Of a DNA stretch of 64,000 nucleotides, positions 1-44,789 are shown piece after piece. Every line of letters begins with the position of its first letter. The stretch's first letter is position 1. The notes beneath the pieces were generated by a model. The model searched no databases. It saw only the letters and a list, made by a program, of their open reading frames with translations, and was not told the origin of the DNA. Made by a program: the position numbers and the translations under genes. The stretch is from Centroscyllium fabricii (Eukaryota), in NCBI GenBank assembly GCA_051313645.2, contig JBNRSN020000089.1, forward strand, positions 2,914,001-2,978,000, written 5' to 3'.

Positions 1-1361
1 CATCTGTGTACAATACATCAGGGAATGTCCATCTGTGTACAGTACATCAGACATTATCCATCTGTGAACAATACTTCAGAAAATGTCCATCTGTGTACAA
101 TACATCCGACGATATCCATCTGTGTACAATACATCAGACAATGTCGATCTGTGAACAAAACATCAGACAATGTCCATCTGTGGACAATACATCAGACAAT
201 GTCGATCTGTGTACAATACGTCAGACAATATGCTTCTGTGTACAATACATCAGACAATGTCCATCTGTGTACAATACATCAGACAATGTCCATCTGTGAA
301 CCATACATCAGCCAATATCCATCTGTGTACAATACATCAGACAATATCCATCTGTGTACAATACATCAGACAATGTCCATCTGTGAACAATACATCAGAC
401 AATGTCCAACTGTGTACAATACATCAGACATTGTCCATCTGTGTACAATACATCAGATATTATCCATCTGTGTACAATACATCAGAAAATGCCCATCAGT
501 GTACAATGCATCAGACAATGCCCATCTGTGAACAATACATCAGACAATATCCATCTGTGTACAATATATCAGACAATATCCATCTGTGTACAATACATCA
601 GAAAATGTCCAACCGTGTACAATACATCAGAGAATATCCATCTGTTTACAATACATCAGCCATTATCCATCTGTGAACAATAGAGCAGACATTATCCATC
701 TGTGTACAATACCTCGTACATTGTCCATCAGTGAACAATACACCAGACATTATCCATCTGTGTACAATACATCAGACAATATCCATCTGTGTACTATAAA
801 TCAGACAACGTCCATCTGTGTACAATCAATCAGACAATATCCATCTGTGTACAATACGTCAGAGAACGTCCATCTGTGTAAAGTATATCAGACAATATCC
901 ATCTGTGAACAATACATCGGACAATGTCCATCTGTGTACAATACATCAGAAAATATCCAGCTGTGTAGAATACATCAGACAATGTCCATCTGTGAGCAAT
1001 ACATCAGACAATGTCCATCTGTGTACAATACACCAGACAATGTGCATCTGTGTACAATACATCAGACAATATGCAACTGTGTACAATACATCAGACAATG
1101 TCCATCTGTGTACAATACATCAGACAATGTCCATCTGTGAACAATACATCAGACAATATCCATCTGATAACAATACTTCAGACAATGTCCATCTGTGTAC
1201 AATACATCAGACAATATCCACCTCTGTACAATACATCAGAAAATGTTCATCTGTGTATAATACATCAGACAATATCCACTTGTGTACAATACATCAGAAA
1301 ATGTACATCTGTGTACAATATATCAGACAATATCCATCTGTGTACAATACATCAGACATTA
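1..1361 (+). repeat. 29-bp satellite array, segment 1 (continues off the window start)
   Basis: Continuous tandem copies of CATCTGTGTACAATACATCAGACAATRTC, mostly 0-3 substitutions per monomer. Common variants are GTGAAC for GTGTAC, and AATATC or ATTATC for AATGTC. Confidence 0.99.
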
Positions 1362-1883
1362 CAAAAGTAGGGAGGTAATGTTAAACCTGTATAACACACT
1401 GGTGAGACCTCAGCTGGAGTACTGTGTGCAGTTCTGGTCACCGCACTACAGGAAGGATGTGGCTGCCCTGGAGAGGGTGCAGAGAAGGTTTACCAGGATG
1501 ATACCTGGTCTGGCGGACCTATGCTACGAGGAAAGGCTGGACAGGCTGGGGTTGTTTGCCTTGGAGAAAAGAAGGTGGAGGGGTGACATGATTGAGGTGT
1601 ACAAGATCATGAGGGGACACGATAGGGTAGACAAAGTGGCATTGTTTCCCCTGGTGGGAGAGTCAAGCACTAGGGGACATAGATTCAAGATCAGGGGGGG
1701 GGGAGGTTTAGGGGGGAGGTAAGGAGAAATTTCTTTACCCAGAGGGTGGTGGAAGACTGGAACTCCCTGCCTGTGAGGGTGGTGGAGGCAGGAACCATCA
1801 CAACATTTAAAAAATACTTGGACCAGCACATGAAGGACCATAACATACAGGGTTATGGGCCAGGTGCGGGCAACTGGGGTTAG
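1362..1883 (+). pseudogene. Frameshifted CR1 ORF2 C-terminal remnant
   Basis: The frame breaks in a G10 run (1694-1703). The shifted frame continues RFRGEVRRNFFTQRVVEDWNSLPVRVVEAGTITTFKKYLDQHMKDHNIQGYGPGAGNWG to TAG at 1881-1883, colinear with the C-terminus of the intact element at 22610-22754. Confidence 0.88.
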
Positions 1884-1908
1884 AACAGTGAGGAGTTTTT
1901 CTGGGCCG

Positions 1909-1968
1909 GTGCGGACTGGATGGGCCGAATGGCCCTTATCCGCACTGTAAAATTTCTATGATTCTATG
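1909..1968 (+). other. LINE 3'-terminal stem-loop and octamer tail (subfamily A)
   Basis: Outer stem GTGCGGA (1909-1915) pairs with TCCGCAC (1939-1945). Inner stem-loop is GGGCC-GAAT-GGCCC (1922-1935). The tail TTTCTATG ATTCTATG (1953-1968) matches the CR1 ATTCTRTG-type terminal repeat. Confidence 0.85.
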
Positions 1969-4900
1969 ATTATCCATCTGTGAACAATACATCAGACATT
2001 ATCCATCTGTGTACAATACATCAGACATTGTCCATCTGTGAACAATACATCAGACATTATCCATCTGAGTACAATACGTCAGACAATATCCATCTGTGTA
2101 CAATACATGAGAAAATATCCATCTGTGTGCAATCCATCAGACAATATCCATCTGTGTACAATACATCAGGGAATGTCCATCTGTGTACAGTACATCAGAC
2201 ATTATCCATCTGTGAACAATACTTCAGACAATGTCCATCTGTGTACAATACATCAGACGATATCCATCTGTGTACAATACATCAGACAATGTCGATCTGT
2301 GAACAAAACATCAGACAATGTCCATCTGTGGACAACACATCAGACAATGTCGATCTGTGTACAATACGTCAGACAATATGCTTCTGTGTACAATACATCA
2401 GACAATGTCCATCTGTGTACAATACATCAGACAATGTCCATCTGTGAACCATACATCAGACAATATCCATCTGTGTACATACATCAGACAATATCCATCT
2501 GTGTACAATACATCAGACAATTTCCATCTGTGAACTCTACATCAGACAATGTCCAACTGTGTACAATACATCAGACATAGTCCATCTGTGTACAATACAT
2601 CAGATATTATCCATCTGTGTACAATACATCAGAAAATGCCCATCAGCGTACAATGCATCAGACAATGGCCATCTGTGAACAATACATCAGACAATATCCA
2701 TCTGTGTACAATATGTCAGACAATATCCATCAGAGTACAATACATCAGAAAATGTCCAATCGTGTACAATACATCAGACAATATCCATCTGTGTACAATA
2801 CATCAGCCATTATCCATCTGTGAACAATAGAGCAGACATTATCCATCTGTGTACAATACCTCGGACATTGTCCATCAGTGAACAATACACCAGACATTAT
2901 CCATCTGTGTACAATACATCAGACAATATCCATCTGTGTACTATAAATCAGACAATGTCCATCTGTGTACAATCAATCAGACAATATCCATCTGTGTACA
3001 ATACGTCAGAGAACGTCCATCTGTGTAGAGTATATCAGACAATATCCATCTCTGAACAATACATCGGACAATGTCCATCTGTGTACAATACATCAGAAAA
3101 TATCCAGCTGTGTAGAATACATCAGACAATGTCCATCTGTGAGCAATACATTAGACAATGTCCATCTGTGTACAATACACCTGACAATGTGCATCTGTGT
3201 ACAATACATCAGACAATATGCAACTGTGTACAATACATCAGACAATGTCCATCTGTGTACAATACATCAGACAATGTCCATCTGTGTACAATACATCACA
3301 CATTATCCATCCGCGTACAATACATCAGAAAATGTTCATCTGTGTACAATACATCAGTTAATTTCCTCTGTGAACAATACATCAGACAATATCCATCTGT
3401 GTACAAAACATCAGACATTGTCCATCTGTGAACAATACATCAGAAAATACCATCTGTGTACAATACATCAGACATTGTCCGTCTGTGTACAATACATCAG
3501 ACAATGTCCATCTGTGAACAATACATCAGACAATGTCCATCTGTGTACAATACATCAGACAATGTCCATCTGTGAACAATACATCAGACAATATCCATCT
3601 GTGTACAATACATCAGACAATGTCCATCTGTGAACAATACATCAGACAATGTCCATCTGTGAACAATACATCAGACATTGTCCATCTGTTTACAATACTT
3701 CAGAGATTTTCCATCTGTGTACAATACGTCAGACATTGTCCACCTGTGTACAATGCATCAGACAGTATCCATCTGTGTACAATATATTAGACAATGTCCA
3801 TCTGTGAACAATACATCAGACAATGTTCATCTGTGTACAATACATCAGACAATATCCATCTGTGAACATTACATCAGACAATGTCCATCTTTGTACAATA
3901 TATCAGAAAATTTCCATCTGTGAACAATCCATAAGACAATATCCATCTGTGCACAGTAAATCAGACAATGTGCATCTGTGTACAATAGATCAGAAAATGT
4001 CCATGTGTGATCAATACATAAGACATTATCCAACTGTGCACAATATATCAGACATTATCCATCTGTGTACAACACATCAGAAAATTTCCATCTGTGAACA
4101 ATACATAAGACATTATCCATCTGTGTACAATAAGTCAGACAATGTCCATTTGTGAACAAAACATCAGACAATATCCATCTGTGAACAATACATCAGACAA
4201 TGTCCATCTGTGTGCAATACTTCAGACAATTTCCATCTGTGTACAATACATCAGACAATATCCATCTGTGTACAGTACTTCAGACAAAGTCCATCTGTGT
4301 ACAATACATCAGAAAATATCCATCTGTGTACAATACAACACACAATGTCCATCTGTGAACAATACATCAGACAATGTCCATCTGTGACAATAAATCATAC
4401 AATGTCCATCTGTGTACATTACATCAGACAATGTCCATCTGTGTACAATACATCAGACAATGTCCTTCTGTGTAGAATACATCAGACAATGTCCATCTGT
4501 GTACATTACATCAGAAAATGTCCATCTGTGTACAATACATCAGACATTTTCCATCTGTAAACAATACATCAGACAATAACCATCTGTGTACAATACATCA
4601 GACAATATCCACCTCTGTACAATACATCAGAAAATGTTCATCTGTGTATAATACATCAGACAATATCCACTTGTGTACAATACATCAGAAAATGTCCATC
4701 TGTGTACAATATATCAGACAATATCCATCTGTGTACAATACATCAGACATTATCCATCTGTGAACAATACATCAGACATTATCCATCTGTGTACAATACA
4801 TCAGACATTGTCCATCTGTGAACAATACATCAGACATTATCCATCTGTGTACAATACGTCAGACAATATCCATCTGTGTACAATACATGAGAAAATATCC

Positions 4901-6289
4901 ATCTGTGTGCAATCCATCAGACAATATCCATCTGTGTACAATACATCAGGGAATGTCCATCTGTGTACAGTACATCAGACATTATCCATCTGTGAACAAT
5001 ACTTCAGAAAATGTCCATCTGTGTACAATACATCCGACGATATCCATCTGTGTACAATACATCAGACAATGTCGATCTGTGAACAAAACATCAGACAATG
5101 TCCATCTGTGGACAATACATCAGACAATGTCGATCTGTGTACAATACGTCAGACAATATGCTTCTGTGTACAATACATCAGACAATGTCCATCTGTGTAC
5201 AATACATCAGACAATGTCCATCTGTGAACCATACATCAGCCAATATCCATCTGTGTACAATACATCAGACAATATCCATCTGTGTACAATACATCAGACA
5301 ATGTCCATCTGTGAACAATACATCAGACAATGTCCAACTGTGTACAATACATCAGACATTGTCCATCTGTGTACAATACATCAGATATTATCCATCTGTG
5401 TACAATACATCAGAAAATGCCCATCAGTGTACAATGCATCAGACAATGCCCATCTGTGAACAATACATCAGACAATATCCATCTGTGTACAATATATCAG
5501 ACAATATCCATCTGTGTACAATACATCAGAAAATGTCCAACCGTGTACAATACATCAGAGAATATCCATCTGTTTACAATACATCAGCCATTATCCATCT
5601 GTGAACAATAGAGCAGACATTATCCATCTGTGTACAATACCTCGTACATTGTCCATCAGTGAACAATACACCAGACATTATCCATCTGTGTACAATACAT
5701 CAGACAATATCCATCTGTGTACTATAAATCAGACAACGTCCATCTGTGTACAATCAATCAGACAATATCCATCTGTGTACAATACGTCAGAGAACGTCCA
5801 TCTGTGTAAAGTATATCAGACAATATCCATCTGTGAACAATACATCGGACAATGTCCATCTGTGTACAATACATCAGAAAATATCCAGCTGTGTAGAATA
5901 CATCAGACAATGTCCATCTGTGAGCAATACATCAGACAATGTCCATCTGTGTACAATACACCAGACAATGTGCATCTGTGTACAATACATCAGACAATAT
6001 GCAACTGTGTACAATACATCAGACAATGTCCATCTGTGTACAATACATCAGACAATGTCCATCTGTGAACAATACATCAGACAATATCCATCTGATAACA
6101 ATACTTCAGACAATGTCCATCTGTGTACAATACATCAGACAATATCCACCTCTGTACAATACATCAGAAAATGTTCATCTGTGTATAATACATCAGACAA
6201 TATCCACTTGTGTACAATACATCAGAAAATGTACATCTGTGTACAATATATCAGACAATATCCATCTGTGTACAATACATCAGACATTA
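1969..6289 (+). repeat. 29-bp satellite array, segment 2
   Basis: Same monomer and orientation; resumes at ATTATCC in phase with segment 1. Confidence 0.99.
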
Positions 6290-6896
6290 CAAAAGTAGGG
6301 AGGTAATGTTAAACCTGTATAACACACTGGTGAGACCTCAGCTGGAGTACTGTGTGCAGTTCTGGTCACCGCACTACAGGAAGGATGTGGCTGCCCTGGA
6401 GAGGGTGCAGAGAAGGTTTACCAGGATGATACCTGGTCTGGCGGACCTATGCTACGAGGAAAGGCTGGACAGGCTGGGGTTGTTTGCCTTGGAGAAAAGA
6501 AGGTGGAGGGGTGACATGATTGAGGTGTACAAGATCATGAGGGGACACGATAGGGTAGACAAAGTGGCATTGTTTCCCCTGGTGGGAGAGTCAAGCACTA
6601 GGGGACATAGATTCAAGATCAGGGGGGGGGGAGGTTTAGGGGGGAGGTAAGGAGAAATTTCTTTACCCAGAGGGTGGTGGAAGACTGGAACTCCCTGCCT
6701 GTGAGGGTGGTGGAGGCAGGAACCATCACAACATTTAAAAAATACTTGGACCAGCACATGAAGGACCATAACATACAGGGTTATGGGCCAGGTGCGGGCA
6801 ACTGGGGTTAGAACAGTGAGGAGTTTTTCTGGGCCGGTGCGGACTGGATGGGCCGAATGGCCCTTATCCGCACTGTAAAATTTCTATGATTCTATG
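6290..6896 (+). mobile_element. CR1-clade LINE 3' fragment, subfamily A, copy 2
   Basis: Appears identical to 1362-1968, including the truncation point, both junctions and the G10 frameshift. Confidence 0.95.
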
Positions 6897-9800
6897 ATTA
6901 TCCATCTGTGAACAATACATCAGACATTATCCATCTGTGTACAATACATCAGACATTGTCCATCTGTGAACAATACATCAGACATTATCCATCTGAGTAC
7001 AATACGTCAGACAATATCCATCTGTGTACAATACATGAGAAAATATCCATCTGTGTGCAATCCATCAGACAATATCCATCTGTGTACAATACATCAGGGA
7101 ATGTCCATCTGTGTACAGTACATCAGACATTATCCATCTGTGAACAATACTTCAGACAATGTCCATCTGTGTACAATACATCAGACGATATCCATCTGTG
7201 TACAATACATCAGACAATGTCGATCTGTGAACAAAACATCAGACAATGTCCATCTGTGGACAACACATCAGACAATGTCGATCTGTGTACAATACGTCAG
7301 ACAATATGCTTCTGTGTACAATACATCAGACAATGTCCATCTGTGTACAATACATCAGACAATGTCCATCTGTGAACCATACATCAGACAATATCCATCC
7401 GTGTACAATACATCAGACAATATCCATCTGTGTACAATACATCAGACAATGTCCATCTGTGAACTCTACATCAGACAATGTCCAACTGTGTACAATACAT
7501 CAGACATAGTCCATCTGTGTACAATACATCAGATATTATCCATCTGTGTACAATACATCAGAAAATGCCCATCAGCGTACAATGCATCAGACAATGGCCA
7601 TCTGTGAACAATACATCAGACAATATCCATCTGTGTACAATATGTCAGACAATATCCATCAGAGTACAATACATCAGAAAATGTCCAATCGTGTACAATA
7701 CATCAGACAATATCCATCTGTGTACAATACATCAGCCATTATCCATCTGTGAACAATAGAGCAGACATTATCCATCTGTGTACAATACCTCGGACATTGT
7801 CCATCAGTGAACAATACACCAGACATTATCCATCTGTGTACAATACATCAGACAATATCCATCTGTGTACTATAAATCAGACAATGTCCATCTGTGTACA
7901 ATCAATCAGACAATATCCATCTGTGTACAATACGTCAGAGAACGTCCATCTGTGTAGAGTATATCAGACAATATCCATCTCTGAACAATACATCGGACAA
8001 TGTCCATCTGTGTACAATACATCAGAAAATATCCAGCTGTGTAGAATACATCAGACAATGTCCATCTGTGTGCAATACATCAGACAATGTCCATCTGTGT
8101 ACAATACACCTGACAATGTGCATCTGTGTACAATACATCAGACAATATGCAACTGTGTACAATACATCAGACAATGTCCATCTGTGTACAATACATCAGA
8201 CAATGTCCATCTGTGAACAATACATCAGACAATATCCATCTGATAACAATACTTCAGGCAATGTCCATCTGTGTACAATACATCAGACAATGTCCATCTG
8301 TGTACAATACATCAGACAAATGTCCATCTGTGTACAATACATCAGACAATATCCATCTGTGAACAATATATCAGACAGTTTCCATCTGTGAACAATACAT
8401 CAGACAATATCCATCTTTGTACAATAGATCAGAAAATGTCCATCTCTGAATAATATATCAGAGAATATCCATCTGTGTACAATACATCAGACAAATGTCC
8501 ATCTGTGTACAATACATCAGCCAATATCCATCAGTGTACAACACATCAGACAATTTCCATCTGTGTACAATACATCAGACAATATCCATCTGTGAACTAT
8601 ATATCAGAAAATGTCCATCTGTGCACAATACATAAGACATTATCAATCTGGGTACAATACATCTGACATTAATCATCTGTGTAGAACACATCAGACAATA
8701 TCCATCTCTGTATAATGCATCAGAAAATGTCCATCTGTGTACCATACATCAGACATTATCCATCTGTGAACAATACATCAGACAATATCCATCTGTGTAC
8801 AATAAATCAGACAATATCCATCTGTGTACAATACATCAGAAAATGTCCGTCTGTGTACAATACATCAGACAATATCCATCTCTGTACAATACATCAGATA
8901 TTATCCATCTGTGAACAATACATCGGACATTATCCATCTGTGTACAATACATCAGACATTTTCCATCTGTGAACAATATATCAGACATTATCCATCAGTG
9001 TACATTACATCAGACAATATCCATCTGTGTACAATACACCAGAGAATGTCCAACTGTGAACAATACATCAGACAATACCCATCTGTGTACAATACATCAG
9101 ACAATGTCCATCTGCGTACAATACATCAGACAATGTCCATCTGTGAACAATACATCAGACAATATCCATCTGTGTACAATACATCAGACAATGTCCATCT
9201 GTGAACAATACATCAGACAATGTCCATCTGTGAACAATACATCAGACATTGTCCATCTGTGTTCAATACATCAGAGATTTTCCATCTGTGTACAATACAT
9301 CAGACATTGTCCATCTGTGTACAATGCATCAGACAGTATCCATCTGTGTACAATACATTAGACAATGTCCATCTGTGAACAATACATCAGACAATGTCCG
9401 TCTGTGGACAATACATCAGACAATGTCCATCTGTGTACAATACATCAGACAATGTCCATCTGTGTACAATACATCAGACAATATCCATCTGTGAACATTA
9501 CATCAGACAATGTCCATCTTTGTACAATATATCAGAAAATTTCCATCTGTGAACAATCCATAAGACAATATCCATCTGTGCACATTAAATCAGACAATGT
9601 GCATCTGTGTACAATAGATCAGAAAATGTCCATGTGTGAACAATACATAAGACATTATCCAACTGTGTACAATACATCAGACATTATCCATCTGTGTACA
9701 ACACATCAGAAAATTTCCATCTGTGAACAATACATAAGACATTATCCATCTGTGTACAATAAATCAGACAATGTCCATTTGTGAACAAAACATCAGACAA

Positions 9801-12800
9801 TATCCATCTGTGAACAATACATCATACAATGTCCATCTGTGTGCAATACATCAGACAATTTCCATCTGTGTACAATACATCAGACAATATCCATCTGTGT
9901 ACAGTACATCAGACAAAGTCCATCTGTGTACAATACATCAGAAAATATCCATCTGTGTACAATACATCACACAATGTCCATCTGTGAACAATACATCAGA
10001 CAATGTCCATCTGTGTACAATAAATCATACAATGTCCATCTGTGTACATTAAATCAGACAATGTCCATCTGTGAACAATACATCAGACAATGTCCTTCTG
10101 TGTAGAATACATCAGACAATGTCCATCTGTGTACATTACATCTGAAAATGTCCATCTGTGTACAATACATCAGACATTATCCATCTGTAAACAATACATC
10201 AGACAATAACAATCTGTGTACAATACATCAGACAATATCCACCTCTGTACAATACATCAGAAAATGTTCATCTGTGTATAATACATCAGACAATATCCAC
10301 TTGTGTACAATACATCAGAAAATGTCCATCTGTGTACAATATATCAGACAATATCCATCTGTGTACAATACATCAGACATTATCCATCTGTGAACAATAC
10401 ATCAGACATTATCCGTCTGCGTACAATACATCAGACATTTTCCATCTGTGAACAATACATCAGACATTATCCATCTGTGTACAATACGTCAGACAATATC
10501 CATCTGTGTACAATACATGAGAAAATATCCATCTGTGTGCAATCCATCAGACAATATCCATCTGTGTACAATACATCAGGGAATGTCCATCTGTGTACAG
10601 TACATCAGACATTATCCATCTGTGAACAATACTTCAGACAATGTCCATCTGTGTACAATACATCCGACGATATCCATCTGTGTACAATACATCAGACAAT
10701 GTCGATCTGTGAACAAAACATCAGACAATGTCCATCTGTGGACAATACATCAGACAATGTCGATCTGTGTACAATACGTCAGACAATATGCTTCTGTGTA
10801 CAATACATCAGACAATGTCCATCTGTGTACAATACATCAGATAATGTCCATCTGTGAACCATACATCAGACAATATCCATCTGTGTACAATACATCAGAC
10901 AATATCCATCTGTGTACAATACATCAGACAATGTCCATCTGTGAACAATACATCAGACAATGTCCAACTGTGTACAATACATCAGATATTGTCCATCTGT
11001 GTACAATACATCAGATATTATCCATCTGTGTACAATACATCAGAAAATGCCCATCAGTGTACAATGCATCAGACAATGTCCATCTGTGAATAATACATCA
11101 GAAATTATCCATCTGTGTACAATATATCAGACAATATCCATCTGTGTACAATACATCAGAAAATGTCCAACCGTGTACAATACATCAGACAATATCCATC
11201 TGTTTACAATACATCAGCCATTATCCATCTGCCAACAATTGAGCAGACATTATCCATCTGTGTACAATACCTCGGACATTGTCCATCAGTGAACAATACA
11301 CCAGACATTATCCATCTGTGTACAATACATCAGACAATATCCATCTGTGTACTATAAATCAGACAATGTCCATCTGTGTACAATCTATCAGACAATATCC
11401 ATCTGTGTACAATACGTCAGAGAACGTCCATCTGTGTAGAGTATATCAGACAATATCCATCTGTGAACAATACATCGGACAATGTCCATCTGTGTACAAT
11501 ACATCAGAAAATATCCAGCTGTGTAGAATACATCAGACAATGTCCATCTGTGAGCAATACATCAGACAATGTCCATCTGTGTACAATACACCAGACAATG
11601 TGCATCTGTGTACAATATATCAGACAATATGCAACTGTGTACAATACATCAGACAATGTCCATCTGTGTACAATACATCAGACAATGTCCATCTGTGAAC
11701 AATACATCAGACAATATCCATCTGATAACAATACTTCAGACAATGTCCATCTGTGTACAATACATCAGACAATGTCCATCTGTGTACAATACATCAGACA
11801 AATGTCGATCTGTGTACAATACATCAGAAAATATCCAGCTGTGTAGAATACATCAGACAATGTCCATCTGTGAGCAATACATCAGACAATGTCCATCTGT
11901 GTACAATACACCAGACAATGTGCATCTGTGTACAATACATCAGACAATATGCAACTGTGTACAATACATCAGACAATGTCCATCTGTGTACAATACATCA
12001 GACAATGTCCATCTGTTAACAATACATCAGACAATATCCATCTGATAACAATACTTCAGACAATGTCCATCTGTGTACAATACATCAGACAATGTCCATC
12101 TGTGTACAATACATCAGACAAATGTCCATCTGTGTACAATATATCAGACAATATCCATCTGTGTACAATACATCAGACATTATCCATCTGTGAACAATAC
12201 ATCAGACATTATCCATCTGTGTTCAATACATCAGACATTGTCCATCTGTGAACAATACATCGGACATTATCCATCTGTGTACAATACATCAGACATTTTC
12301 CATCTGTGAACAATATATCAGACATTATCCATCAGTGTACAATACATCAGACAATATCCATCTGTGTACAATACACCAGAGAATGTCCAACTGTGAACAA
12401 TACATCAGACAATACCCATCTGTGTACATTATATCAGAAAATGTCCATCTGTGAACAATACAAAAGACAATATCCATCTGTCTACAATACATCAGACATT
12501 ATCCATCTGTGTACAATACATGAGAAAATGTCCATCTGTGTTCAATCCATCAGACAATATCCATCTGTGTACAATATATCAGAAAATGTGCATATGTGTA
12601 CAATACATCAGACATTATCCATCTGTGAACAATACTTCAGACAATGTCCATCTGTGTACAATACATCAGACAATATCCATCTGTGTACAATACATCAGAC
12701 AATGTGCATCTGTGTACAATACATCAGACAATATGCAACTGTGTACAATACATCAGACAATGACCATCTGTGTACAATACATCAGACAATGTCCATCTGT

Positions 12801-15800
12801 GAACAATACATCAGACAATATCCATCTGATAACAATACTTCAGTCAATGTCCATCTGTGTACAATACATCAGACAATATCCACCTCTGTACAATACATCA
12901 GAAAATGTTCATCTGTGTATAATACATCAGACAATATCCACTTGTGTACAAAACATCGGAAAATGTCCATCTGTGTACAATATATCAGACAATATCCATC
13001 TGTGTACAATACATCAGACATTATCCATCTGTGAACAATACATCAGACATTATCCATCTGTGTACAATACATCAGACATTGTCCATCTGTGAACAATACA
13101 TCAGACATTATCCATCTGTGTACAATACGTCTGACAATATCCATCTGTGTACAATACATGAGAAAATATCCATCTGTGTGCAATCCATCAGACAATATCC
13201 ATCTGTGTACAATACATCAGGGAATGTCCATCTGTGTACAGTACATCAGACATTATCCATCTGTGAACAATACTTCAGACAATGTCCATCTGTGTACAAT
13301 ACATCAGACGATATCCATCTGTGTACAATACATCAGACAATGTCGATCTGTGAACAAAACATCAGACAATGTCCATCTGTGGACAATACATCAGACAATG
13401 TCGATCTGTGTACAATACGTCAGACAATATGCTTCTGTGTACAATACATCAGACAATGTCCATCTGTGTACAATACATCAGACAATGTCCATCTGTGAAC
13501 CATACATCAGACAATATCCATCTGTGTACAATACATCAGACAATATCCATCTGTGTACAATACATCAGACAATGTCCATCTGTGAACTATACATCAGCCA
13601 ATGTCCAACTGTGTACAATACATCAGACATTGTCCATCTGTGTACAATACATCAGATATTATCCATCTGTGTACAATACATCAGAAAATGCCCATCAGTG
13701 TACAATGCATCAGACAATGTCCATCTGTGAACAATACATCAGACAATATCCATCTGTGTACAATATATCAGACAATATCCATCTGTGTACAATACATCAG
13801 AAAATGTCCAATCGTGTACAATACATCAGACAATATCCATCTGTGTACAATACATCAGCCATTATCCATCTGTGAACAATAGAGCAGACATTATCCATCT
13901 GTGTACAATACCTCGGACATTGTCCATCAGTGAACAATACACCAGACATTATCCATCTGTGTACAATACATCAGACAATATCTTTCTGTGTACTATAAAT
14001 CAGACAATGTCCATCTGTGTACAATCAATCATACAATATCCATCTGTGTACAATACGTCAGAGAACGTCCATCTGTGTAGAGTATATCAGACAATATCCA
14101 TCTGTGAACAATACATCGGACAATGTCCATCTGTGTACAATACATCAGAAAATATCCAGCTGTGTAGAATACATCAGACAATGTCCATCTGTGAGCAATA
14201 CATCAGACAAGGTCCATCTGTGTACAATACACCAGACAATGTGCATCTGTGTACAATACATCAGACAATATGCAACTGTGTACAATACATCAGACAATGT
14301 CCATCTGTGTACAATACATCAGACAATGTCCATCTGTGAACAATACATCAGACAATATCCATCTGATAACAATACTTCAGACAAGGTCCATCTGTGTACA
14401 ATACATCAGACAATGTCCATCTGTGTACAATACATCAGACAAATGTCCATCTGTGTACAATACATCAGACAATATCCATCTGTGAACAATACATCAGACA
14501 GTATCCATCTGTGAAAAATACATCAGACAATATCCATCTTTGTACAATACATCAGAAAATGTCCATCTCTGAACAAAATATCAGAGAATATCCATCTGTG
14601 TACAATACATCAGACAAATGTCCATCTGTGTACAATACATCAGACAATATCCATCAGTGTACAACACATCAGACAATTTCCATCTGTGTACAATACATCA
14701 GACAATATCCATCTGTGAACTATATATCAGAAAATGTCCATCTGTGCACAATACATAAGACATTATCAATCTGGGTACAATACATCTGACATTAATCATC
14801 TGTGTAGAATACATCAGACAATATCCATCTCTGTATAATGCATCAGAAAATGTCCATCTGTGTACCATACATCAGACATTATCCATCTGTGAACAATACA
14901 TCAGACAATATCCATCTGTGTACAATAAATCAGACAATATCCATCTGTGTACAATACATCAGAAAATGTCCGTCTGTGTACAATACATCAGACAATATCC
15001 ATCTCTGTACAATACATCAGATATTATCCATCTGTGAACAATACATCGGACATTATCCATCTGTGTACAATACATCAGACATTTTCCATCTGTGAACAAT
15101 ATATCAGACATTATCCATCAGTGTACAATACATCAGACAATATCCATCTGTGTACAATACACCAGAGAATGTCCAACTGTGAACAATACATCAGACAATA
15201 CCCATCTGTGTACAATACATCAGAAAATGTCCATCTGTGAACAATACAAAAGACAATATCCATCTGTCTACAATACATCAGACATTATCCATCTGTGTAC
15301 AATACATGAGAAAATGTCCATCTGTGTTCAATCCATCAGATAATATCCATCTGTGTACAATATATCAGAAAATGTCCATATGTGTACAGTACATCAGACA
15401 TTATCCATCTGTGAACAATACTTCAGACAATGTCCATCTGTGTACAATACATCAGACAATATCCATCTGTGTACAATACATCAGACAATGTCCATCTGTG
15501 AACAATACATCAGACAATGTCCATCTGTGGTCAATACATCAGACAATGTCGATCTGTGTACAATACATCAGACAATATGCGTCTGTTTACAACACATCAG
15601 ACATTGTCCATCTGTGTACAATACTTCAGACAATGTCCATCTGTGAACAATATATCAGACAATATTCATCTGTGTACAATACATCAGACAATGTCCATCT
15701 GTGTACAATACATCAGACAATGTCAATCTGTGATCAATACATCAGACAATGTCCCTCTGTGTACAATACATCAGGGAATGTCCATCTGTGTACAGTACAT

Positions 15801-18800
15801 CAGACATTATTCATCTGTGAACAATACTTCAGACAATGTCCATCTGTGTACAATACATCAGACAATATCCATCTTTGTACAATACATCAGACAATGTCCA
15901 TCTGTGAACAATACATCAGACAATGTCCATCTGTGGACAATACATCAGACAATGTCGATCTGTGTACAATACGTCAGACAATATGCACCTGTGTACAATA
16001 CATCAGACAATGTCCATCTGTGTACAAAACATCAGAAAATGTCCATCTGTGAACCATACATCAGACAATATCCATCTGTGTACAATACATCAGACAATGT
16101 CCATCTGTGTACAATACATCAGACAATGTCCATCTTTGAACAATACAGCAGACAATGTCCAACTGTGTACAATACATCAGACATTGTACATCTGTGTACA
16201 ATACATCAGATATTATCCATCTGTGTACAATACATCAGAAAATGTCCATCTGTGTACAATGCATCAGACAATGTCCATCTGAGAACAATACATCAGACAA
16301 TATCCATCTGTGTACAATACATCAGACAATATCCATCTGTGTACCATACATCAGAAAATGTCCATCCGTATACAATACATCAGACAATATCCATCTGTGT
16401 ACAATACATCAGCCATTATCCATCTGTGAACTATAGAGCAGACATTATCCATCTGTGTACAATACATCGGACATTGTCCATCTGTGAACAATACACCAGA
16501 CATTATGCATCTGTGTACAAAACCTCAGACAATATCCATCTGTGTACTATAAATCAGACAATGTCCATCTGTGTACAATCCATCAGACAATATCCATCTG
16601 TGTACAGAACGTCAGAGAACGTCCATCTGTGTAGAGTACATCAGACAATATCCATCTGTGAACAATACATCGGACAATGCCCATCTGTGGACAATACATC
16701 AGACAATGTCGATCTGTGTACAATATGTCAGACAATATGCATCTGTGTACAATACATCAGACAATGTACATCTGTGTACAATACATCAGACAATGTCCAT
16801 CTGTGAACCATACATCAGACAATATCCATCTGTGTAGAGTACATCAGACAATATCCAGCTGTGTAGAATACATCAGGCAATGTCAATCTGTGAGCAATAC
16901 ATCAGACAATGTCCATCTGTGTACAATACATCAGACAATGTCCATATGTGTACAATACATCAGACAATATGCAACTGTGTACAATACATCAGACAATATC
17001 CATCTGTGTACAATACATCAAACAATGTCCATCTGTGAACAATATATCAGAAAATATCCATCTGTGTACAATACTTCAGACAATGTCCATCTGTGTACAA
17101 TACATCAGCCAATGTCTATCTGTGTACAATACATCAGACAAATGTCCATCTGTGTACAATACATCAGACAATATCCATCTGTGAACAATACATCAGACAG
17201 TTTCCATCTGTGAACAATACATCAGACAATATCCATCTTTGTACAATACATCAGAAAATGTCCATCTCTGAACAATATATCAGACAATATCCATCTGTGT
17301 ACAATACATCAGACAAATGTACATCTGTGTACAATATATCAGACAATATTCATCAGTGTACAATACATCAGACAATTTCCATCTGTGTACAATTCATCAG
17401 ACAATATCCATCTGTGAACAATATATCAGAAAATGTCCATCTGTGCACAATACATAAGACATTATCAATCTGGGTACAATACATCTGATATTATCCATCT
17501 GTGTAGAATACATCAGACAATATCCATCTCTGTATAATACATCAGAAAATGTCCATCTGTGTACCATATATCAGACATTATCCATCTGTGAACAATACAT
17601 CAGACAATATCCATCTGTGTACAATAAATCAGACAATATCCATCTGTGTACAATACATCAGAAAATGTCCATTTGTGTACAATATATCAGACAATATCAA
17701 TCTGTGTACAATACATCAGACATTATTCATCTGTGTACAATACATCAGACATTTTCCATCTGTGAACAATACATCAGATATTATCCATCTGTGTACAATA
17801 CATCAGACAATATCCATCTGTGTATAATACACCAGAGAATGTCCATCTGTGAACAAATCATCAGACAATGTCCATCTGTGTACAATATATCAGAAAATGT
17901 CCATCTGTGAACAATACATAAGACATTATCCATCTGTCTACAATATATCAGACAATATCCATCTGTGTACAATACATGAGAAAATGTCCATCTGTGTGCA
18001 ATCCATCAGGCAATATCCATCTGTGTACAATACATCAGAGAATGTCCATCTTTGTACAGTACATCAGACATTATCCATCTGTGAACAATACTTCAGACAA
18101 TGTCCATCTGTGTACAATACATCTGACAATATCCATCTGTGTACCATACATCAGACAATGTCCATCTGTGAACAATACATCAGACAATGTCCATCTGTGG
18201 ACAATACATCAGACAATGTCGGTCTGTGTACAATACATCAGACAATATGCTTCTGTGTACAATACATCAGACAATATGCAACTGTGTACAATACATCAGA
18301 CAATGTCCATCTGTGTACAATACATCAGAAAATGTCCATCTGTGAACAATACATCAGACAATATCCATCTGATAACAATACTTCAGACAATGTCCATCTG
18401 TGTACAATACATCAGACAATGTCCATCTGTGTACAATACATCAGACAAATGTCCATCTGTGTACAATATATCAGACAATATCCATCTGTGAACAATAGAT
18501 CAGACAGTTTCCATCTGTGAACAATACATCAGACAATATCCATCTTTGTACAATACATCAGAAAATGTCCATCTCTGAACAATATATCAGAGAATATCCA
18601 TCTGTGTACAATACATCAGACAAATGTCCATCTGTGTACAATACATCAGACAATATCCATCAGTGTACAATAAATCAGATAATTTCCATCTGTGTACAAT
18701 ACATCAGACAATATCCATCAGTGTACAACACATCAGACATTGTCCATCTGTGTACAATATTTCAGACAATATCCATCTGTGTACAATATATCAGACAATA

Positions 18801-20306
18801 TCCATCTGTGTACAATACATCAGAAAATGTCCAACCGTGTACAATACATCAGACAATATCCATCTGTGTACAATACATCAGCCATTATCCATCTGTGAAC
18901 AATAGAGCAGACATTATCCATCTGTGTACAATACCTCGGACATTGTCCATCAGTGAACAATACACCAGACATTATCCATCTGTGTACAATACATCAGACA
19001 ATATCCATCTGTGTACTATAATTCAGAAAATGTCCATCGGTGTACAATCAATCAGACAATATCCATCTGTGTACAATACGTCAGAGAACGTCCATCTGTG
19101 TAGAGTATATCAGACAATATCCATCTGTGAACAATACATCGGACAATGTCCATCTGTGTACAATACATCAGAAAATATCCAGCTGTGTAGAATACATCAG
19201 AAAATGTCCATCTGTGAGCAATACATCAGACAATGTCCATCTGTGTACAATACACCAGACAATGTGCATCTGTGTACAATACATCAGACAATATGCAACT
19301 GTGTACAATACATCAGACAATGTCCATCTGTGTACAATACATCAGACAATGTCCATCTGTGAACAATACATCAGACAATATCCATCTGATAACTATACTT
19401 CAGACAATGTCCATCTGTGTACAATACATCAGACAATGTCCATCTGTGTACAATACATCAGACAAATGTCCATCTGTGTACAATACATCAGACAATATCC
19501 ATCTGTGAACAATACATCAGACAGTTTCCATCTGTGAACAATACATCAGACAATATCCATCTTTGTACAATACATCAGAAAATGTCCATCTCTGAACAAT
19601 ATATCAGAGAATATCCATCTGTGTACAATACATCAGACAAATGTCCATCTGTGTACAATACATCAGACAATATCCATCAGTGTACAATACATCAGAAAAT
19701 TTCCATCTGTGTACAATACATCAGACAATATCCATCTGTGAACTATATATCAGAAAATGTCCATCTGTGCACAATACATAACACATTATCAATCTGGGTA
19801 CAATACATCTGACATTAATCATCTGTGTAGAATACATCAGACAATATCCATCTCTGTATAATGCATCAGAAAATGTCCATCTGTGTACCATGTATCAGAC
19901 ATTATCCATCTGTGAACAATACATCAGACAATATCCATCTGTGTACCATAAATCAGACAATATCCATCTGTGTGCAATACATCAGAAAATGTCTGTCTGT
20001 GTACAATACATCAGACAATATCCATCTCTGTACAATACATCAGATATTTTCCATCTGTGAACAATACATCGGACATTATCCATCTGTGTACAATACATCA
20101 GACATTTTCCAACTGTGAACAATATATCAGACATTATCCATCAGTGTACAATACATCAGACAATATCCATCTGTGAACAATACACCAGAGAATGTCCAAC
20201 TGTGAACAATACATCAGACAATACCCATCTGTGTACAATACATCAGAAAATGTCCATCTGTGAACAATACATAACACATTATCCATCTCTCTACAATACT
20301 TCAGAC
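6897..20306 (+). repeat. 29-bp satellite array, segment 3
   Basis: Same monomer and orientation, with occasional 30-bp (GACAAATGTCC) monomers. Confidence 0.99.
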
Positions 20307-22754
20307 TTTTATAGACCACCAAATAGCAACAGGGAGGTGGAGGAGGAAATTGCGCGACAAATAAAGGAAAGATGTGAGGGACAGAGGGTAGTTATAATGG
20401 GAGATTTGAATTTCCCTAATATAGACTGGAATCTGGGTAGGTCAAGGAGTGCAGAGGTTGAGATTTTCTTACAATGCGTACAGGAAGGTTTCCTGACACA
20501 ATACGTGGAGGAACCAACAAAGGGGGGTGCAACGTTGGACCTGGTTCTGGGAAATGAACCAGGCCAAGTGGTAGAACTGGGGGTAAGGGAGCACTTTGGG
20601 GACAGTGACCACAACTCGGTGACGTTCACAATAGTAATGGAGAAGGATAGGAGCAAGAGGCAGGGCAAGGTATACAGCTGGGGGAGGGGAAATTACGACA
20701 GGGTTAGGCACGATTTAGGTAACACCAATTGGGAACGGGAACTTGAGGGGAGAGGAACGGAAGAAAAATGGAGAGTGTTCAGGGAGCAAATTATGAAAGC
20801 CCTGGACAAGCATGTCCCGAGTAGGATGGGAAGAAAGGGTAAGATGAGAGAACCATGGATCACGAAAGAGGTAGAACAATTAGTAAAAAGGAAGAAGGAA
20901 GCATATGATAAAATGAGAAAACAGAGTACAGAGGGGGCGGGAAGGGAGTACAAAGAAGCAAGGAAAAAACTGAAGAATGGGCTAAGGAAGGCAAAGGGAG
21001 GGCATGAGAAGGCATTAGCGGGAAGGATAAGGGAGAACCCCAAGGCTTTCTATGCTTACGTAAGAAATAAAAGGATGACTAGGGTAAAAGTAGGGCCGAT
21101 CAAAGACAGCAAGGGAGAAATGTGCACGGAGCCAGAGGAAATTGGGGAAGCACTAAATGAATATTTTGCATCCGTGTTCACAAGGGAGAGCGAACTAAAA
21201 GTAGAGGGGGAGTTCAAGATACAAGGGGAAAAGATGGGGGAAGTAAATATTCAGAGGGGGGAGGTATTAGAAATTTTGGAGAAACTAAAGGTAGACAAAT
21301 CTCCTGGGCCGGACGGGATTTATCCAAGGATTCTCTGGGAGGCGAGGGAAGAAATCGCAGAGCCACTGACCTCTATCTTTAGATCATCGCTATCCTCGGG
21401 GATAGTCCCTAAGGACTGGAGAGAGGCGAATGTGGCTCCCATATTTAAAAAGGGGAGCAGGGACGCGCCAGGGAACTACAGACCAGTCAGTCTCACCTCA
21501 GTGGTCGGAAAGGTGATGGAAAGGGTCCTGAAGGACAGGATCTACGACCATCTAGACAGGGGCAAATTAATCAGAAGCAGTCAGCACGGATTCGTTAAGG
21601 GCAAATCGTGCCTGACCAACCTGATAGAATTCTTTGAAGAGGTGACCAGGAGTGTGGACGAGGGAAAGGCGGTTGATGTCATATACATGGACTTCAGCAA
21701 GGCGTTCGACAAGGTCCCGCACGGTCGACTTATGAGGAAAGTAAGGAGATGCGGGGTAAGCAACAAAGTGGTGGGATGGATTGAGAACTGGCTGGCTCAA
21801 AGGAAGCAGAGGGTAGTGGTAGAAGGCCAATACTCGGGCTGGAGACCGGTCACAAGTGGGGTACCACAGGGGTCGGTGTTGGGGCCACTACTGTTTGTAA
21901 TCTTCATCAATGACTTGGAGGAGGGGACTGAGGGGTGGGTCAGCAAGTTTGCGGACGACACAAAGATAGGGGGAGAAGTGGACGAGGAGGAAGGAGGTAG
22001 AAAGATTCAGAGGGATATAGACAGGATGCAGAGCTGGGCTGAAGAATGGCAGATGGAGTTCAACACGGGGAAATGCGAGGTGATGCACTTCGGCAGGGCA
22101 AATAGGAAGAGGGAATATAGGGTCAATGGCAGAATCCTGAGTGAAGCAGAGGAGCAAAGGGATCTGGGAGTATATGTACACAGATCACTGAAGGCTGCCA
22201 CCCAGGTGGACAAAGCAGTGAAAAAGGCCTATGGGGTATTGGCCTTCATCAACAGGGGAATAGAGTTTAAGAACCGGGAGGTCATGCTGCAGCTGTACAG
22301 GTCACTGGTGAGGCCGCACGTGGAGTACTGTGTGCAGTTCTGGGCACCGTACTACAGGAGAGATGTGGAGGCGCTGGAGAGGGTGCAGAGGAGATTCACC
22401 AGGATGCTGCCGGGAATGGGAGGAAGGTCATACGAGGAGAGGTTGAGGGAGCTGGGTCTCTTCTCCCTGGAACGGAGAAGGAAGAGGGGGGACTTGATAG
22501 AGATGTTCAAAATGATGAAGGGGATCGATAGAGTAAACGTGCAAAGACTGTTTCCCCGGGCGGGAAGAACGTCAACAAGAGGACACGAGCACAAGATTCA
22601 AGGAGGAAGATTCAGAAGGGATGGCAGGGGCAGGTTCTTTACACAGAGAGCGGTCGGGGAATGGAATAGGCTACCATCTGAAATAGTGGATGCGGACAGT
22701 CTGGGTGCTTTTAAAAGGATGATAGACAGGTACATGGAGGGGAAGGAACAGTAG
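20307..22754 (+). CDS. LINE ORF2 (C-terminal part of APE endonuclease plus reverse transcriptase), 815 aa, N-terminally truncated
   Basis: APE motifs YRPP, MGDLNFP, LDLVL and SDH. RT motifs KSPGPDG, NYRPVSLTS, QHGF, YMDFSKAFDKVPH, GVPQGSVLGP, FADD and DLGV. CR1-type C-terminus EYCVQFW...FFTQRAVGEWNRLP. No internal stop or frameshift. The first 64 aa of the tracked ORF (20115-20306) are satellite-derived. Confidence 0.93.
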   Translation, partial: FYRPPNSNREVEEEIARQIKERCEGQRVVIMGDLNFPNIDWNLGRSRSAEVEIFLQCVQEGFLTQYVEEPTKGGATLDLVLGNEPGQVVELGVREHFGDSDHNSVTFTIVMEKDRSKRQGKVYSWGRGNYDRVRHDLGNTNWERELEGRGTEEKWRVFREQIMKALDKHVPSRMGRKGKMREPWITKEVEQLVKRKKEAYDKMRKQSTEGAGREYKEARKKLKNGLRKAKGGHEKALAGRIRENPKAFYAYVRNKRMTRVKVGPIKDSKGEMCTEPEEIGEALNEYFASVFTRESELKVEGEFKIQGEKMGEVNIQRGEVLEILEKLKVDKSPGPDGIYPRILWEAREEIAEPLTSIFRSSLSSGIVPKDWREANVAPIFKKGSRDAPGNYRPVSLTSVVGKVMERVLKDRIYDHLDRGKLIRSSQHGFVKGKSCLTNLIEFFEEVTRSVDEGKAVDVIYMDFSKAFDKVPHGRLMRKVRRCGVSNKVVGWIENWLAQRKQRVVVEGQYSGWRPVTSGVPQGSVLGPLLFVIFINDLEEGTEGWVSKFADDTKIGGEVDEEEGGRKIQRDIDRMQSWAEEWQMEFNTGKCEVMHFGRANRKREYRVNGRILSEAEEQRDLGVYVHRSLKAATQVDKAVKKAYGVLAFINRGIEFKNREVMLQLYRSLVRPHVEYCVQFWAPYYRRDVEALERVQRRFTRMLPGMGGRSYEERLRELGLFSLERRRKRGDLIEMFKMMKGIDRVNVQRLFPRAGRTSTRGHEHKIQGGRFRRDGRGRFFTQRAVGEWNRLPSEIVDADSLGAFKRMIDRYMEGKEQ

Positions 22755-22787
22755 GGGGGAAAGGAAAAATCAGAGATGGACTAAGGG

Positions 22788-22855
22788 CGGCACTACATTG
22801 AGGGCCCAAGGGCCTGTACAGTGCTGTATGTTCTATGTTCTATGTTCTATGTTCT
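22788..22855 (+). other. LINE 3'-terminal stem-loop and heptamer tail (subfamily B)
   Basis: CGGCACT (22788-22794) pairs with AGTGCTG (22820-22826, one G-U). Inner stem-loop is GGCC-CAAG-GGCC (22803-22814). Tail is (TATGTTC)4. Confidence 0.82.
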
Positions 22856-23439
22856 ATTATCCATCTGTGTACAATACATGAGAAAATGTCCATCTGTGTT
22901 CAATCCATCAGACAATATCCATCTGTGTACAATATATCAGAAAATGTCCATATGTGTACAGTACATCTGACATTATCCATCTGTGAACAATACTTCAGAC
23001 AATGTCCATCTGTGTACAATACATCAGACAATATCCATCTGTGTACAATACATCAGACAATGTCCATCTGTGAACAATACATCAGACAATGTCCATCTGT
23101 GGACAATACATCAGACAATGTCGATCTGTGTACAATACATCAGACAATATGCGTCTGTGTACAACACATCAGACATTGTCCATCTGTGTACAATACTTCA
23201 GACAATGTCCATCTGTGAACAATATATCAGACAATATTCATCTGTGTACAATACATCAGACAATGTCCATCTGTGTACAATACATCAGACAATGTCAATC
23301 TGTGATCAATACATCAGACAATGTCCCTCTGTGTACAATACATCAGGGAATGTCCATCTGTGTACAGTACATCAGACATTATCCATTTGTGAACAATACT
23401 TCAGACAATGTCCATCTGTGTACAATACATCAGACAATA

Positions 23440-26400
23440 TTCATCTTTGTACAATACATCAGACAATGTCCATCTGTGAACAATACATCAGACAATGTCC
23501 ATCTGTGGACAATACATCAGACAATGTCGATCTGTGTACAATACGTCAGACAATATGCATCTGTGTACAATACATCAGACAATGTCCATCTGTGTACAAA
23601 ACATCAGAAAATGTCCATCTGTGAACCATACGTCAGACAATATCCATCTGTGTACAATACATCAGACAATGTCAATCTGTGTACAATATATCAGACAATG
23701 TCCATCTTTGAACAAAACAGCAGACAATGTCCAACTGTGTACAATACATCAGACATTGTCCATCTGTGTACAATACATCAGATATTATCCATCTGTGTAC
23801 AATACATCAGAAAATGTCCATCTGTGTGCAATGCATCAGACAATGTCCATCTGAGAACAATACATCAGACAATATCCATCTGTGTACAATACATCAGACA
23901 ATATCCATCTGTGTACAATACATCAGAAAATGTCCATCCGTATACAATACATCAGACAATATCCATCTGTGTACAATACATCAGCCATTATCCATCTGTG
24001 AACTATAGAGCAGACATTATCCATCTGTGTACAATACATCGGACATTGTCCATCTGTGAACAATACACCAGACATTATGCATCTGTGTACAATACCTCAG
24101 ACAATATCCATCTGTGTATTATAAATCAGACAATGTCCATCTGTGTACAATCCATCAGACAATATCCATCTGTGTACAGTACGTCAGAGAACGTCCATCT
24201 GTGTAGAGTACATCAGACAATATCCATCTGTGAACAATACATCGGACAATGCCCATCTGTGGACAATACATCAGACAATGTCGATCTGTGTACAATACGT
24301 CAGACAATATGCATCTGTGTACAATACATCAGACAATGTCCATCTGTGTACAATACATCAGACAATGTCCATCTGTGAACCATACATCAGACAATATCCA
24401 ACTGTGTAGAGTACATCAGACAATATCCAGCTGTGTAGAATACATCAGGCAATGTCAATCTGTGAGCAATACATCAGACAATGTCCATCTGTGTACAATA
24501 CATCAGACAATATCCATCTGTGTACAATACATCAAACAATGTCCATCTGTGAACAATATATCAGAAAATATCCATCTGTGTACATTTCTTCAGACAATGT
24601 CCACCTGTGTACAATACATCAGACAATGTCCATCTGTGTACAATACATCAGACAAATGTCCATCTGTGTACAATACATCAGACAATATCCATCTGTGAAC
24701 AATACATCAGGCAGTTTCCATCTCTGAACAATACATCAGACAATATCCATCTTAGTACATTACATCAGAAAATGTCCATCTCTGAACAATATATCAGACA
24801 ATATCCATCTGTGTACAATACATCAGACAAATGTCCATCTGTGTACAATATATCAGACAATATCCATCAGTGTACAATACATCAGACAATTTCCATCTGT
24901 GTACAATACATCAGACAATATCCATCTGCGAACAATATATCAGAAAATGTCCATCTGTGCACAATACATAAGACATTATCAATCTGGGTACAATACATCT
25001 GATATTATCCATCTGTGTAGAGTACACCAGACAATATCCATCTCTGTATAATACATCAGAAAATGTCCATCTGTGTACCATATATCAGACATTATCCATC
25101 TGTGAACAATACGTCAGACAATATCCATCTGTGTACAATAAATCAGACAATATCCATCTGTGTACAATACATCAGAAAATGTCCATCTGTGTGCAATATA
25201 TCAGACAATATCCATCTGTGTACAATACATCAGACATTATCCATCTGTGAACAATACATCGGACATTATTCATCTGCGTACAATACATCAGACATTTTCC
25301 ATCTGTGAACAATACATCAGACATTATCCATCTGTGTACAATACATCAGACAATATCCATCTGTGTACAATACACCAGAGAATGTCCATCTGTGAACAAT
25401 ACATCAGACAATATCCATCTGTGTACAATACATCAGAAAATGTCCATCTTTGAACAATACATAAGACATTATCCCTCTGTCTACAATATATCAGACAATA
25501 TCCATCTGTGTACAATACATGAGAAAATGTCCATCTGTGTGCAATCCATCTGGCAATATCCATCTGTGTACAATACATCAGAGAATGTCCATCTGTGTAC
25601 AGTACATCAGACATTATCCATCTGTGAACAATACTTCAGACAATGTCCATCTGTGTACAATACATCAGACAATATCCATCTGTGTACCATACATCAGACA
25701 ATGTCCATCTGTGAACAATACATCAGACAATGCCCATCTGTGGACAATACATCAGACAATGTCGATCTGTGTACAATATATCAGACAATATGCTTCTGTG
25801 TACAATACATCAGACAATATGCAACTGTGTACAATACATCAGACAATATCCATCTGTGTACAATACATCAGACAATGTCCATCTGTGAACAATACATCAG
25901 ACAATATCCATCTTTGTACAATACATCAGAAAATGTCCATCTCTGAACAATATATCAGACAATATCCATCTGTGTACAATACATCAGACAAATGTCCATC
26001 TGTGTACAATATATCAGACAATATCCATCAGTGTACAATACATCAGACAATTTCCATCTGTGTACAATACATCAGACAATATCCATCTGTGAACAATATA
26101 TCAGAAAATGTCCATCTGTGCACAATACATAAGACATTATCAATCTGGGTACAATACATCCGATATTATCCATCTGTGTAGAATACACCAGACAATATCC
26201 ATCTCTGTATAATACATCAGAAAATGTCCATCTGTGTACCATATATCAGACATTATCCATCTGTGAACAATACATCAGACAATATCCATCTGTGTACAAT
26301 AAATCAGACAATATCCATCTGTGTACAATACATCAGAAAATGTCCATCTGTGTACAATATATCAGACAATATCCATCTTTGTACAATACATCAGACAATG

Positions 26401-44300: not shown

Positions 44301-44789
44301 CTGTGTACAATACATCAGACAATGTCCATCTGTGAACCATACATCAGACAATATCCATCTGTGTACAATACATCAGACAATGTCCATCTGTGTACAATAC
44401 ATCAGACAATGTCCATCTGTGAACAATACATCAGACAATGTCCATCTGTGTACAATACATCAGACATTGTCCATCTGTGTACAATACATCAGATATTATC
44501 CATCTGTGTACAACACATCAGAAAATGTCCATCTGTGTACAATGCATCAGACAATGTCCATCTGTGAACAATACATCAGGCAATATCCATCTGTGTACAA
44601 TACATCTGACAATATCCATCTGTGTACAATACATCAGAAAATGTACATCCGTGTACAATACATCAGACAATATCCATCTGTGTACAATACATCAGCCATT
44701 ATCCATCTGCGAACAATAGAGCAGACATTATCCATCTGTGTACAATACATCGGATATGTCCATCTGTGAACATTACACCAGATATTATC

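Follow-up and report, generated by a model that had tools for sequence, protein, structure and literature searches.

Recurrent insertion of CR1 retrotransposons at one position of a 29-bp satellite array in Centroscyllium fabricii

Background

Why should two CR1 LINEs of different subfamilies have entered a tandem satellite at the identical base and on the same strand? CR1 is the dominant LINE in many vertebrates, and its target choice has been described merely as a weak bias, partly because the empty site is rarely known. The question was raised by a 64,000-nucleotide window of the Centroscyllium fabricii genome (C1477:2914001-2978000, where C1477 is a 3.35-Mb contig), which a preliminary description had read as the record of two separate insertions into a favoured variant of the satellite. 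For avian CR1 only a TTCT target bias was found, together with an overlap of the 3' end with the target (PMC2612034). The section of PMC6007223 on CR1 3' ends puts this overlap at one to several bases, and the tail is described in a passage of PMC8665684 as ATTCTRTG plus a hairpin.

Results

The window was a single 29-bp array (1..64000, + strand; unit CATCTGTGTACAATACATCAGACAATGTC as given by TRF) with three inserts, namely A, a copy of A and B, and it belongs to the array at C1477:2149761-3039060. Insertion A is a 5'-truncated CR1 of subfamily A1 (1362..1968, + strand) that retains the ORF2 C-terminus, a 3' UTR hairpin and an (ATTCTATG)2 tail at 1953-1968. It is flanked by CAGAC plus ATTA on the 5' side (1353..1361, +) and by the target ATTATCC on the 3' side (1969..1975, +), where the junction falls at monomer position 24, the common insertion site. 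Since ATT is common to tail and target at the 3' junction and the final TA of the 5' flank also matches the element, as judged against longer natural copies, the target duplication is 2-4 bp. A second, identical copy (6290..6896, +) is offset by +4928 bp through duplication of a 4928-bp array block, so the two were counted as one event. Insertion B (20307..22855, +) is a CR1 of subfamily B truncated inside the APE endonuclease, with ORF2 open to 22754, a 3' hairpin and a (GTTCTAT)4 tail (22827-22857, +). It lies between CAGAC (20302..20306, +) and ATTATCC (22856..22862, +), again at position 24, and as C is shared at the 5' junction and AT at the 3' junction, there is no clear duplication. A and B were identical at 73 of 111 residues across their common part (about 68% at the DNA level) and had unlike tails, so they represent separate lineages and separate events. 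The junction coordinates given in the preliminary description were all correct, and its reading of two subfamilies inserted separately at the identical satellite base, on the same strand, was confirmed. Among the 2071 monomers of the window, ATTATCC was present in 262 (12.7%), AATGTCC in 701 and AATATCC in 517. Taken alone, the coincidence of both events at the same one of 58 possible sites has P~0.02.

ORF2 of subfamily B encodes an APE endonuclease (Pfam Exo_endo_phos_2, E 3e-10) followed by a reverse transcriptase (RVT_1, E 1.3e-37), and its closest relative among solved structures was L1 ORF2p (E 1e-29). The A tail fits the ATTCTRTG type (PMC2612034; PMC8665684) and not poly(A), and the B tail is a 7-mer variant of that type. 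Long stem-loops folded before the tail in the 3' UTR of both A (z -2.55) and B (z -0.03), that of B being no more stable than shuffled sequences; with this proviso, the elements combine the APE plus RT ORF2, the ATTCTRTG-type tail and the 3' stem-loop of the CR1 clade. The A- and B-type elements may be those called HE1/HER1. One table in PMC3747384 lists an HE1/HER1 pair in sharks and rays. In the whole genome we counted 22,403 B, 6,274 A2 and 3,973 forward A1 3' ends, the A1 count being slightly too low; with tens of thousands of dispersed copies against 11 array events, these elements are not confined to one target repeat. Apparently full-length copies within the array are a B element at C1477:2485820-2490939 (5.1 kb) and an A2 element at C1477:2607048-2612696 (5.6 kb). 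Several dispersed B copies were 99.8-99.9% identical over 1.5 kb to this array B copy, indicating that B is very young. The A1 insertion at C1477:2657252-2658282 carries a 5' inversion of the kind seen in twin priming.

For the census of the array, C1477:2054001-3118000 was surveyed and gaps of at least 70 bp between monomers were scored. The array extends from 2149761 to ~3039060 (~0.9 Mb) and contains ~28,200 monomers, all on one strand. In 32 of the 40 gaps the insert was a CR1 or a CR1-tailed SINE whose tail abutted the satellite; excluded from the count were 5 LTR-like copies (3 events), one captured gene fragment, one run of degenerate monomers and one complex segment at the array edge whose junction lacked a tail. 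Smaller spacing irregularities in the array revealed no short insert. When array-duplicated groups of 4, 10, 4 and 2 copies were merged, 16 independent events remained, and in 14 of them the 3' junction was at monomer position 24, CAGAC^A[A/T]T[A/G]TCC, on the + strand. These 14 comprised four A1 events (C1477:2657252, 2716920, 2882501 and 2915335), three A2 events (2153219, 2607048 and 2857758), six B events (2244655, 2471341, 2485820, 2621171, 2934284 and 2990228) and one SINE event (2696467). The target variant was ATTAT in 5, AATAT in 4, AATGT in 4 and AATGA in 1. Target duplications were short (0-7 bp), a few events having small deletions or a longer offset, and in three B events ...TTCTATGT was directly followed by AATGTCC, with zero homology between tail and target. 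The two exceptions likewise ended at an AWTRT word. One was a third lineage, C (C1477:2291180), at position 12, where the monomer has its other AC^AAT site, here as the rare AATAT variant and with AATAT duplicated; the other was an antisense copy at the array edge (C1477:2149761), at GT^ATTGT.

Against a uniform null, 14 of 16 events at one site have P~1e-21, and it is this array-wide count, rather than the two window events, that places the pattern far beyond chance. The + strand was used in 15 of 16 events (P 0.0003 if both strands are equally likely, 0.02 if the + strand has the 0.69 predicted by the logo). Requiring a CR1 tail with the monomer no more than 30 nt downstream, a genome-wide search returned 38 matches; every one lay on C1477, and apart from one monomer variant they were all in a single phase. 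The same search in reverse orientation, also genome-wide, yielded no true insert inside the array, and the antisense matches within it (C1477:2425801-2966963) proved to be monomer variants without an insert. Insertions spread over phases and both strands, which the preliminary description had held to be incompatible with a site preference, were thus not what the array contains: one base and one orientation of the repeat took 14 of 16.

As judged from their sequences, the 16 events are independent, differing in subfamily, 5' end, duplication length, target variant and flanks. Mismatches per 174 nt numbered 17-85 between events and 0-6 between copies in the upstream flanks, and 12-70 and 0-15, respectively, in the downstream flanks; the subfamily-by-variant classes among the events, nine in all, set a conservative minimum. 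Nested array duplications with periods of ~2.4 and ~10 kb (C1477:2696467-2745707) have multiplied two insertions, a SINE to 10 copies and a short A1 element to 4, and these amplified copies are usable as markers of array expansion. The array holds 11 young A1, A2 and B events where 4.5 were expected from the genome-wide element density (P 0.007). This excess, at most ~2.4-fold, leaves the proposed role of the satellite as a landing pad weak at most.

Three LTR-like inserts with TG...CA ends (C1477:2602846, 2835901/2848755 and 2887135/2889838) occupy three monomer phases, with 4-bp duplications of TGTA, ATAT and AATA, and two of the three were duplicated along with the array. The captured fragment of 3.15 kb (C1477:2669054-2672231; L076:5054-8231) contains an exon of NSRP1 (Pfam NSRP1_N, E 9e-10), an intron, fragments of CR1 and a cut SINE. 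It is inserted at CAGAC^AAT, the same site as the CR1s, with CAGACA microhomology at its right end, and from these features it looks like a templated capture at a break. C1477 bears a satellite cluster, with a 42-bp satellite to the left of the 29-bp array (C1477:2057600-2092000) and a 37-bp satellite adjoining it on the right (C1477:3039060 to beyond 3160566), in which an antisense insert with another tail type is found at C1477:3056269. When the 37-bp array was used as a control, no tails of types A to D were detected in it and seven matches were monomer variants, its size making the comparison uninformative.

The preference outside the array was determined from 172 unique junctions on contig C1, taken in listing order (22 A1, 60 A2, 60 B and 30 SINE). 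The resulting logo was loose: among 68 usable A-type junctions, the base at +1 was A in 62 and that at +2 was A or T in 58, with little farther on, and in 40 of 60 B junctions an A came directly after the tail match. An AWTRT word was reachable at 9 of 82 A-type LINE, 1 of 60 B and 1 of 30 SINE junctions, compared to 13 of 14 at the focal satellite site. A generic CR1 motif, which the preliminary description had offered as the other way to account for the coincidence, is therefore much looser than what is seen in the satellite.

Words directly following A-type tails outside the array were also counted across the whole genome. Among all 79 matches of one 8-mer search, AATGTCCA occurred 12, ATTGTCTG 11 and AATGTCTG 11 times; among all 37 matches of a second word search, AATACATC occurred 7 and ATACATC 29 times; and among the first 100 of 186 matches of a third, ATCTGTGT occurred at least 9 times, ATCTGTGA at least 4 times (14 tandem matches on contig C25 having been dropped) and ATCAGACA at least once. 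The look-alikes of the minus-strand satellite sites, ATTGTCTG and AATACATC, were thus about as frequent genome-wide as AATGTCCA, although their own satellite sites had received 0 events each in the common form. A downstream TCC conferred no advantage genome-wide. On C25, tandem arrays at 598438-598962 and 2329402-2330003 contain CR1-tail-like octamers every ~70-150 bp (at least 14 matches), possibly a satellite that has grown from a CR1 tail.

Applied to the real array, position-weight nulls assigned position 24 a weight of 6-20%, also when C at -1 was assumed to be strong, and P for at least 14 of 16 was 5e-16 to 1e-8. A composite 8-mer null, background-normalised and with partly assumed weights, gave the focal site 20-50% and P of 1e-8 to 2e-3. 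Even a null restricted strictly to C^AWTRT left the minus-strand twin, with its 0 of 16 events, at P 0.002. The look-alike counts and the nulls together indicate that the downstream sequence lowers ATC sites, and they leave the empty minus-strand twin and position 12 unexplained. On the upstream side, sites with a called duplication of at least 3 nt were compared: C stood at -1 in only 4 of the 15 unselected ones and in 6 of the 10 with an AWTRT word, which makes the upstream term a weak one. The sense strand showed a mild skew of C over G in 59 resolved genome-wide 5' flanks (0.20 at -1..-5, P 0.013), in the same direction as the satellite + strand; SINE copies were dropped from this upstream context as too old and with unclear junctions.

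Two further ideas were rejected. The idea that the best local site wins came from an exploratory comparison of 12 cells, in one of which AWTRT words were depleted (1 vs 8.8 expected) at 8-23 nt on the downstream side of non-AWT junctions, but the signal failed a pre-set replication (7 vs 5.1 expected, with 45 usable of 60 new sites). For a hairpin or cruciform with the site in its loop, four 87-mers showed no sign of folding (z -0.46 to 0.21).

A second CR1 hot spot lies in a dispersed tRNA-derived SINE (for example L317, L192, L193, L345 and L351), in which 5 of 10 sampled junctions, B copies included, were at one antisense base. A further recurrent site is AATGTGCAAAC. Within a 31-nt window of this SINE, ACAC^ATATCCC held at least 67 of the 84 unique A-tail junctions among the first 100 of 413 matches, 16 double-listed matches having been removed before counting; at least 12 others were at CCCT^ATCCCC and at least 5 elsewhere. 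The SINE site resembles the satellite site AGAC^AATATCC, and single-base hot spots are thus possible without satellite chromatin. The SINE hot spot is weaker evidence than it may seem, because ATA is the commonest junction start genome-wide (27 of 91) and the simple logo accounts for about half of the hot spot by our own arithmetic.

Discussion

In the array, 14 of 16 independent events share one junction and one orientation, and the events have duplications of 0-7 bp and can dispense with tail homology, and the genome-wide logo of the same elements is loose. We lean, with reserve, towards a preference of the CR1 endonuclease, which would favour one bottom-strand TpG nick by reading a wider sequence or shape than the short genome-wide logo captures. 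Under the model of target-primed reverse transcription, a CAGAC^AWTRT junction implies a bottom-strand nick at ..AWT^G... The enzyme would nick the bottom strand at 5'-GGA[C/T]A[A/T]T^GTCTG-3', reverse transcription would be primed from that nick, and a second-strand cut 0-7 bp away would leave the short duplications. Through additional bases or DNA shape, position 24 would be nicked far more readily than other monomer sites, and tail pairing over A, AT or ATT would probably add a small bonus to the ATTAT variant. It is the nick that sets the A, to judge by the three zero-homology B events and by the B junctions genome-wide with A after the tail. Since both exceptions lie at AWTRT words, the choice tracks sequence and not position alone; the LTR-like inserts at three phases indicate that other phases are accessible and tolerated, and the single-base SINE hot spot outside satellite chromatin supports the case. 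Against an endonuclease preference, none of the sequence models built matches the observed sharpness, the position-weight nulls giving the site 6-20% and the composite 20-50%. The part of PMC6007223 concerned with target choice attributes LINE sites to APE endonuclease specificity, and there the enzyme may read the minor groove.

Alternatively, a monomer-bound protein, phased nucleosomes or a tether in the array may expose position 24 or recruit the elements to it, with one-way replication or transcription setting the strand, which we regard as possible but doubtful. Both the sharpness and the strand bias exceed every sequence null, no event has used the minus-strand twin GGAC^ATTGTCTG, whose downstream 8-mer does serve genome-wide, and one LTR-like insert (duplication ATAT) and the captured gene fragment break the monomer at or beside position 24, which would fit a general exposure of that spot. 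However, the two other LTR-like inserts lie at different phases, the off-site CR1 exceptions track the AWTRT word, and the dispersed SINE has a comparable hot spot of one base and one orientation. A satellite factor or chromatin, acting with one-way replication or transcription, would then confine a promiscuous LINE and SINE and might represent a step toward R1/TRAS-like targeting with the enzyme unchanged, a reading that we hold only tentatively.

It is very unlikely that the pattern arises because ATTAT is the preferred site by virtue of pairing with the CR1 tail (ATT or AT) at priming. Both window events are in ATTAT, A-type junctions genome-wide begin with A or AT, and the 3' overlap of CR1 with its target is known (PMC2612034; PMC6007223). 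The ATTAT preference originally proposed survives as a mild enrichment, with 5 of 14 array events against 11.6% of monomers (P 0.017), and not as a required site, as 9 of 14 events used other variants; ATTAT is thus a mild bonus rather than a rule, and an ATTAT-only preference was ruled out. Pairing alone would also favour two minus-strand ATT sites and the ATA, ATC and ATG sites, which are essentially unused. With these empty ATT sites and the three zero-overlap events, tail microhomology was rejected as the cause, and tail pairing as sole cause is largely refuted. The least probable reading is non-independence, in which a single old junction was spread by recombination or gene conversion, or in which insertions elsewhere in the monomer were purged: four events were indeed amplified by array duplication, to 2-10 copies each, and one old copy differs from its sister at 15 of 174 downstream bases, inside the between-event range, but the subfamilies (A vs B ~68% DNA identity), 5' ends, duplications and target variants are unlike, upstream flanks differ far more than between copies, the nine subfamily-by-variant classes are unable to share one junction, and inserts at other phases survive, even duplicated.

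The array elements resemble avian CR1 and shark HER1/HE1 in the APE plus RT ORF2, the 3' hairpin, the 8-mer tail ATTCTATG, 5' truncation, short 3' overlap and weak base bias; reports on those describe weak bias only, whereas here one base and strand takes 14 of 16 events, zero-overlap events included. The nearest precedent, by analogy, may be the site-specific retrotransposition of L1 into human alphoid DNA reportedly described by Laurent et al. (1997, Genomics 46:127, PMID 9403067), where a non-site-specific LINE likewise recurs at one satellite monomer site. That case concerns the L1 clade, with a poly-A tail and a target consensus of TTTT/AA, whereas the present one concerns CR1, a 29-bp monomer and several subfamilies plus a SINE, with a logo too loose to predict the site. 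LINEs of the R1, TRAS/SART and Tx1 groups are confined to their own target repeat. They too use an APE-type enzyme at one base and in one orientation of a tandem repeat, but the CR1s studied here are widely dispersed, with few copies in the satellite. Tx1 target specificity is treated in a section of PMC3747384. A search of CC-licensed PMC articles and bioRxiv found nothing relevant on CR1 phase-locking in satellites.

A tandem array supplies the empty site, so that the nick position, the 0-7 bp duplications and homology-free priming can be read at single-base resolution, and site choice within it is far sharper than the genome-wide logo predicts. The question of enzyme, tail pairing or chromatin is directly testable with one 29-bp substrate. 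If the endonuclease preference holds, the array would be a natural assay of how CR1 chooses its landing sites, with a bearing on the origin of site-specific LINEs and on the build-up of insertions in satellites.
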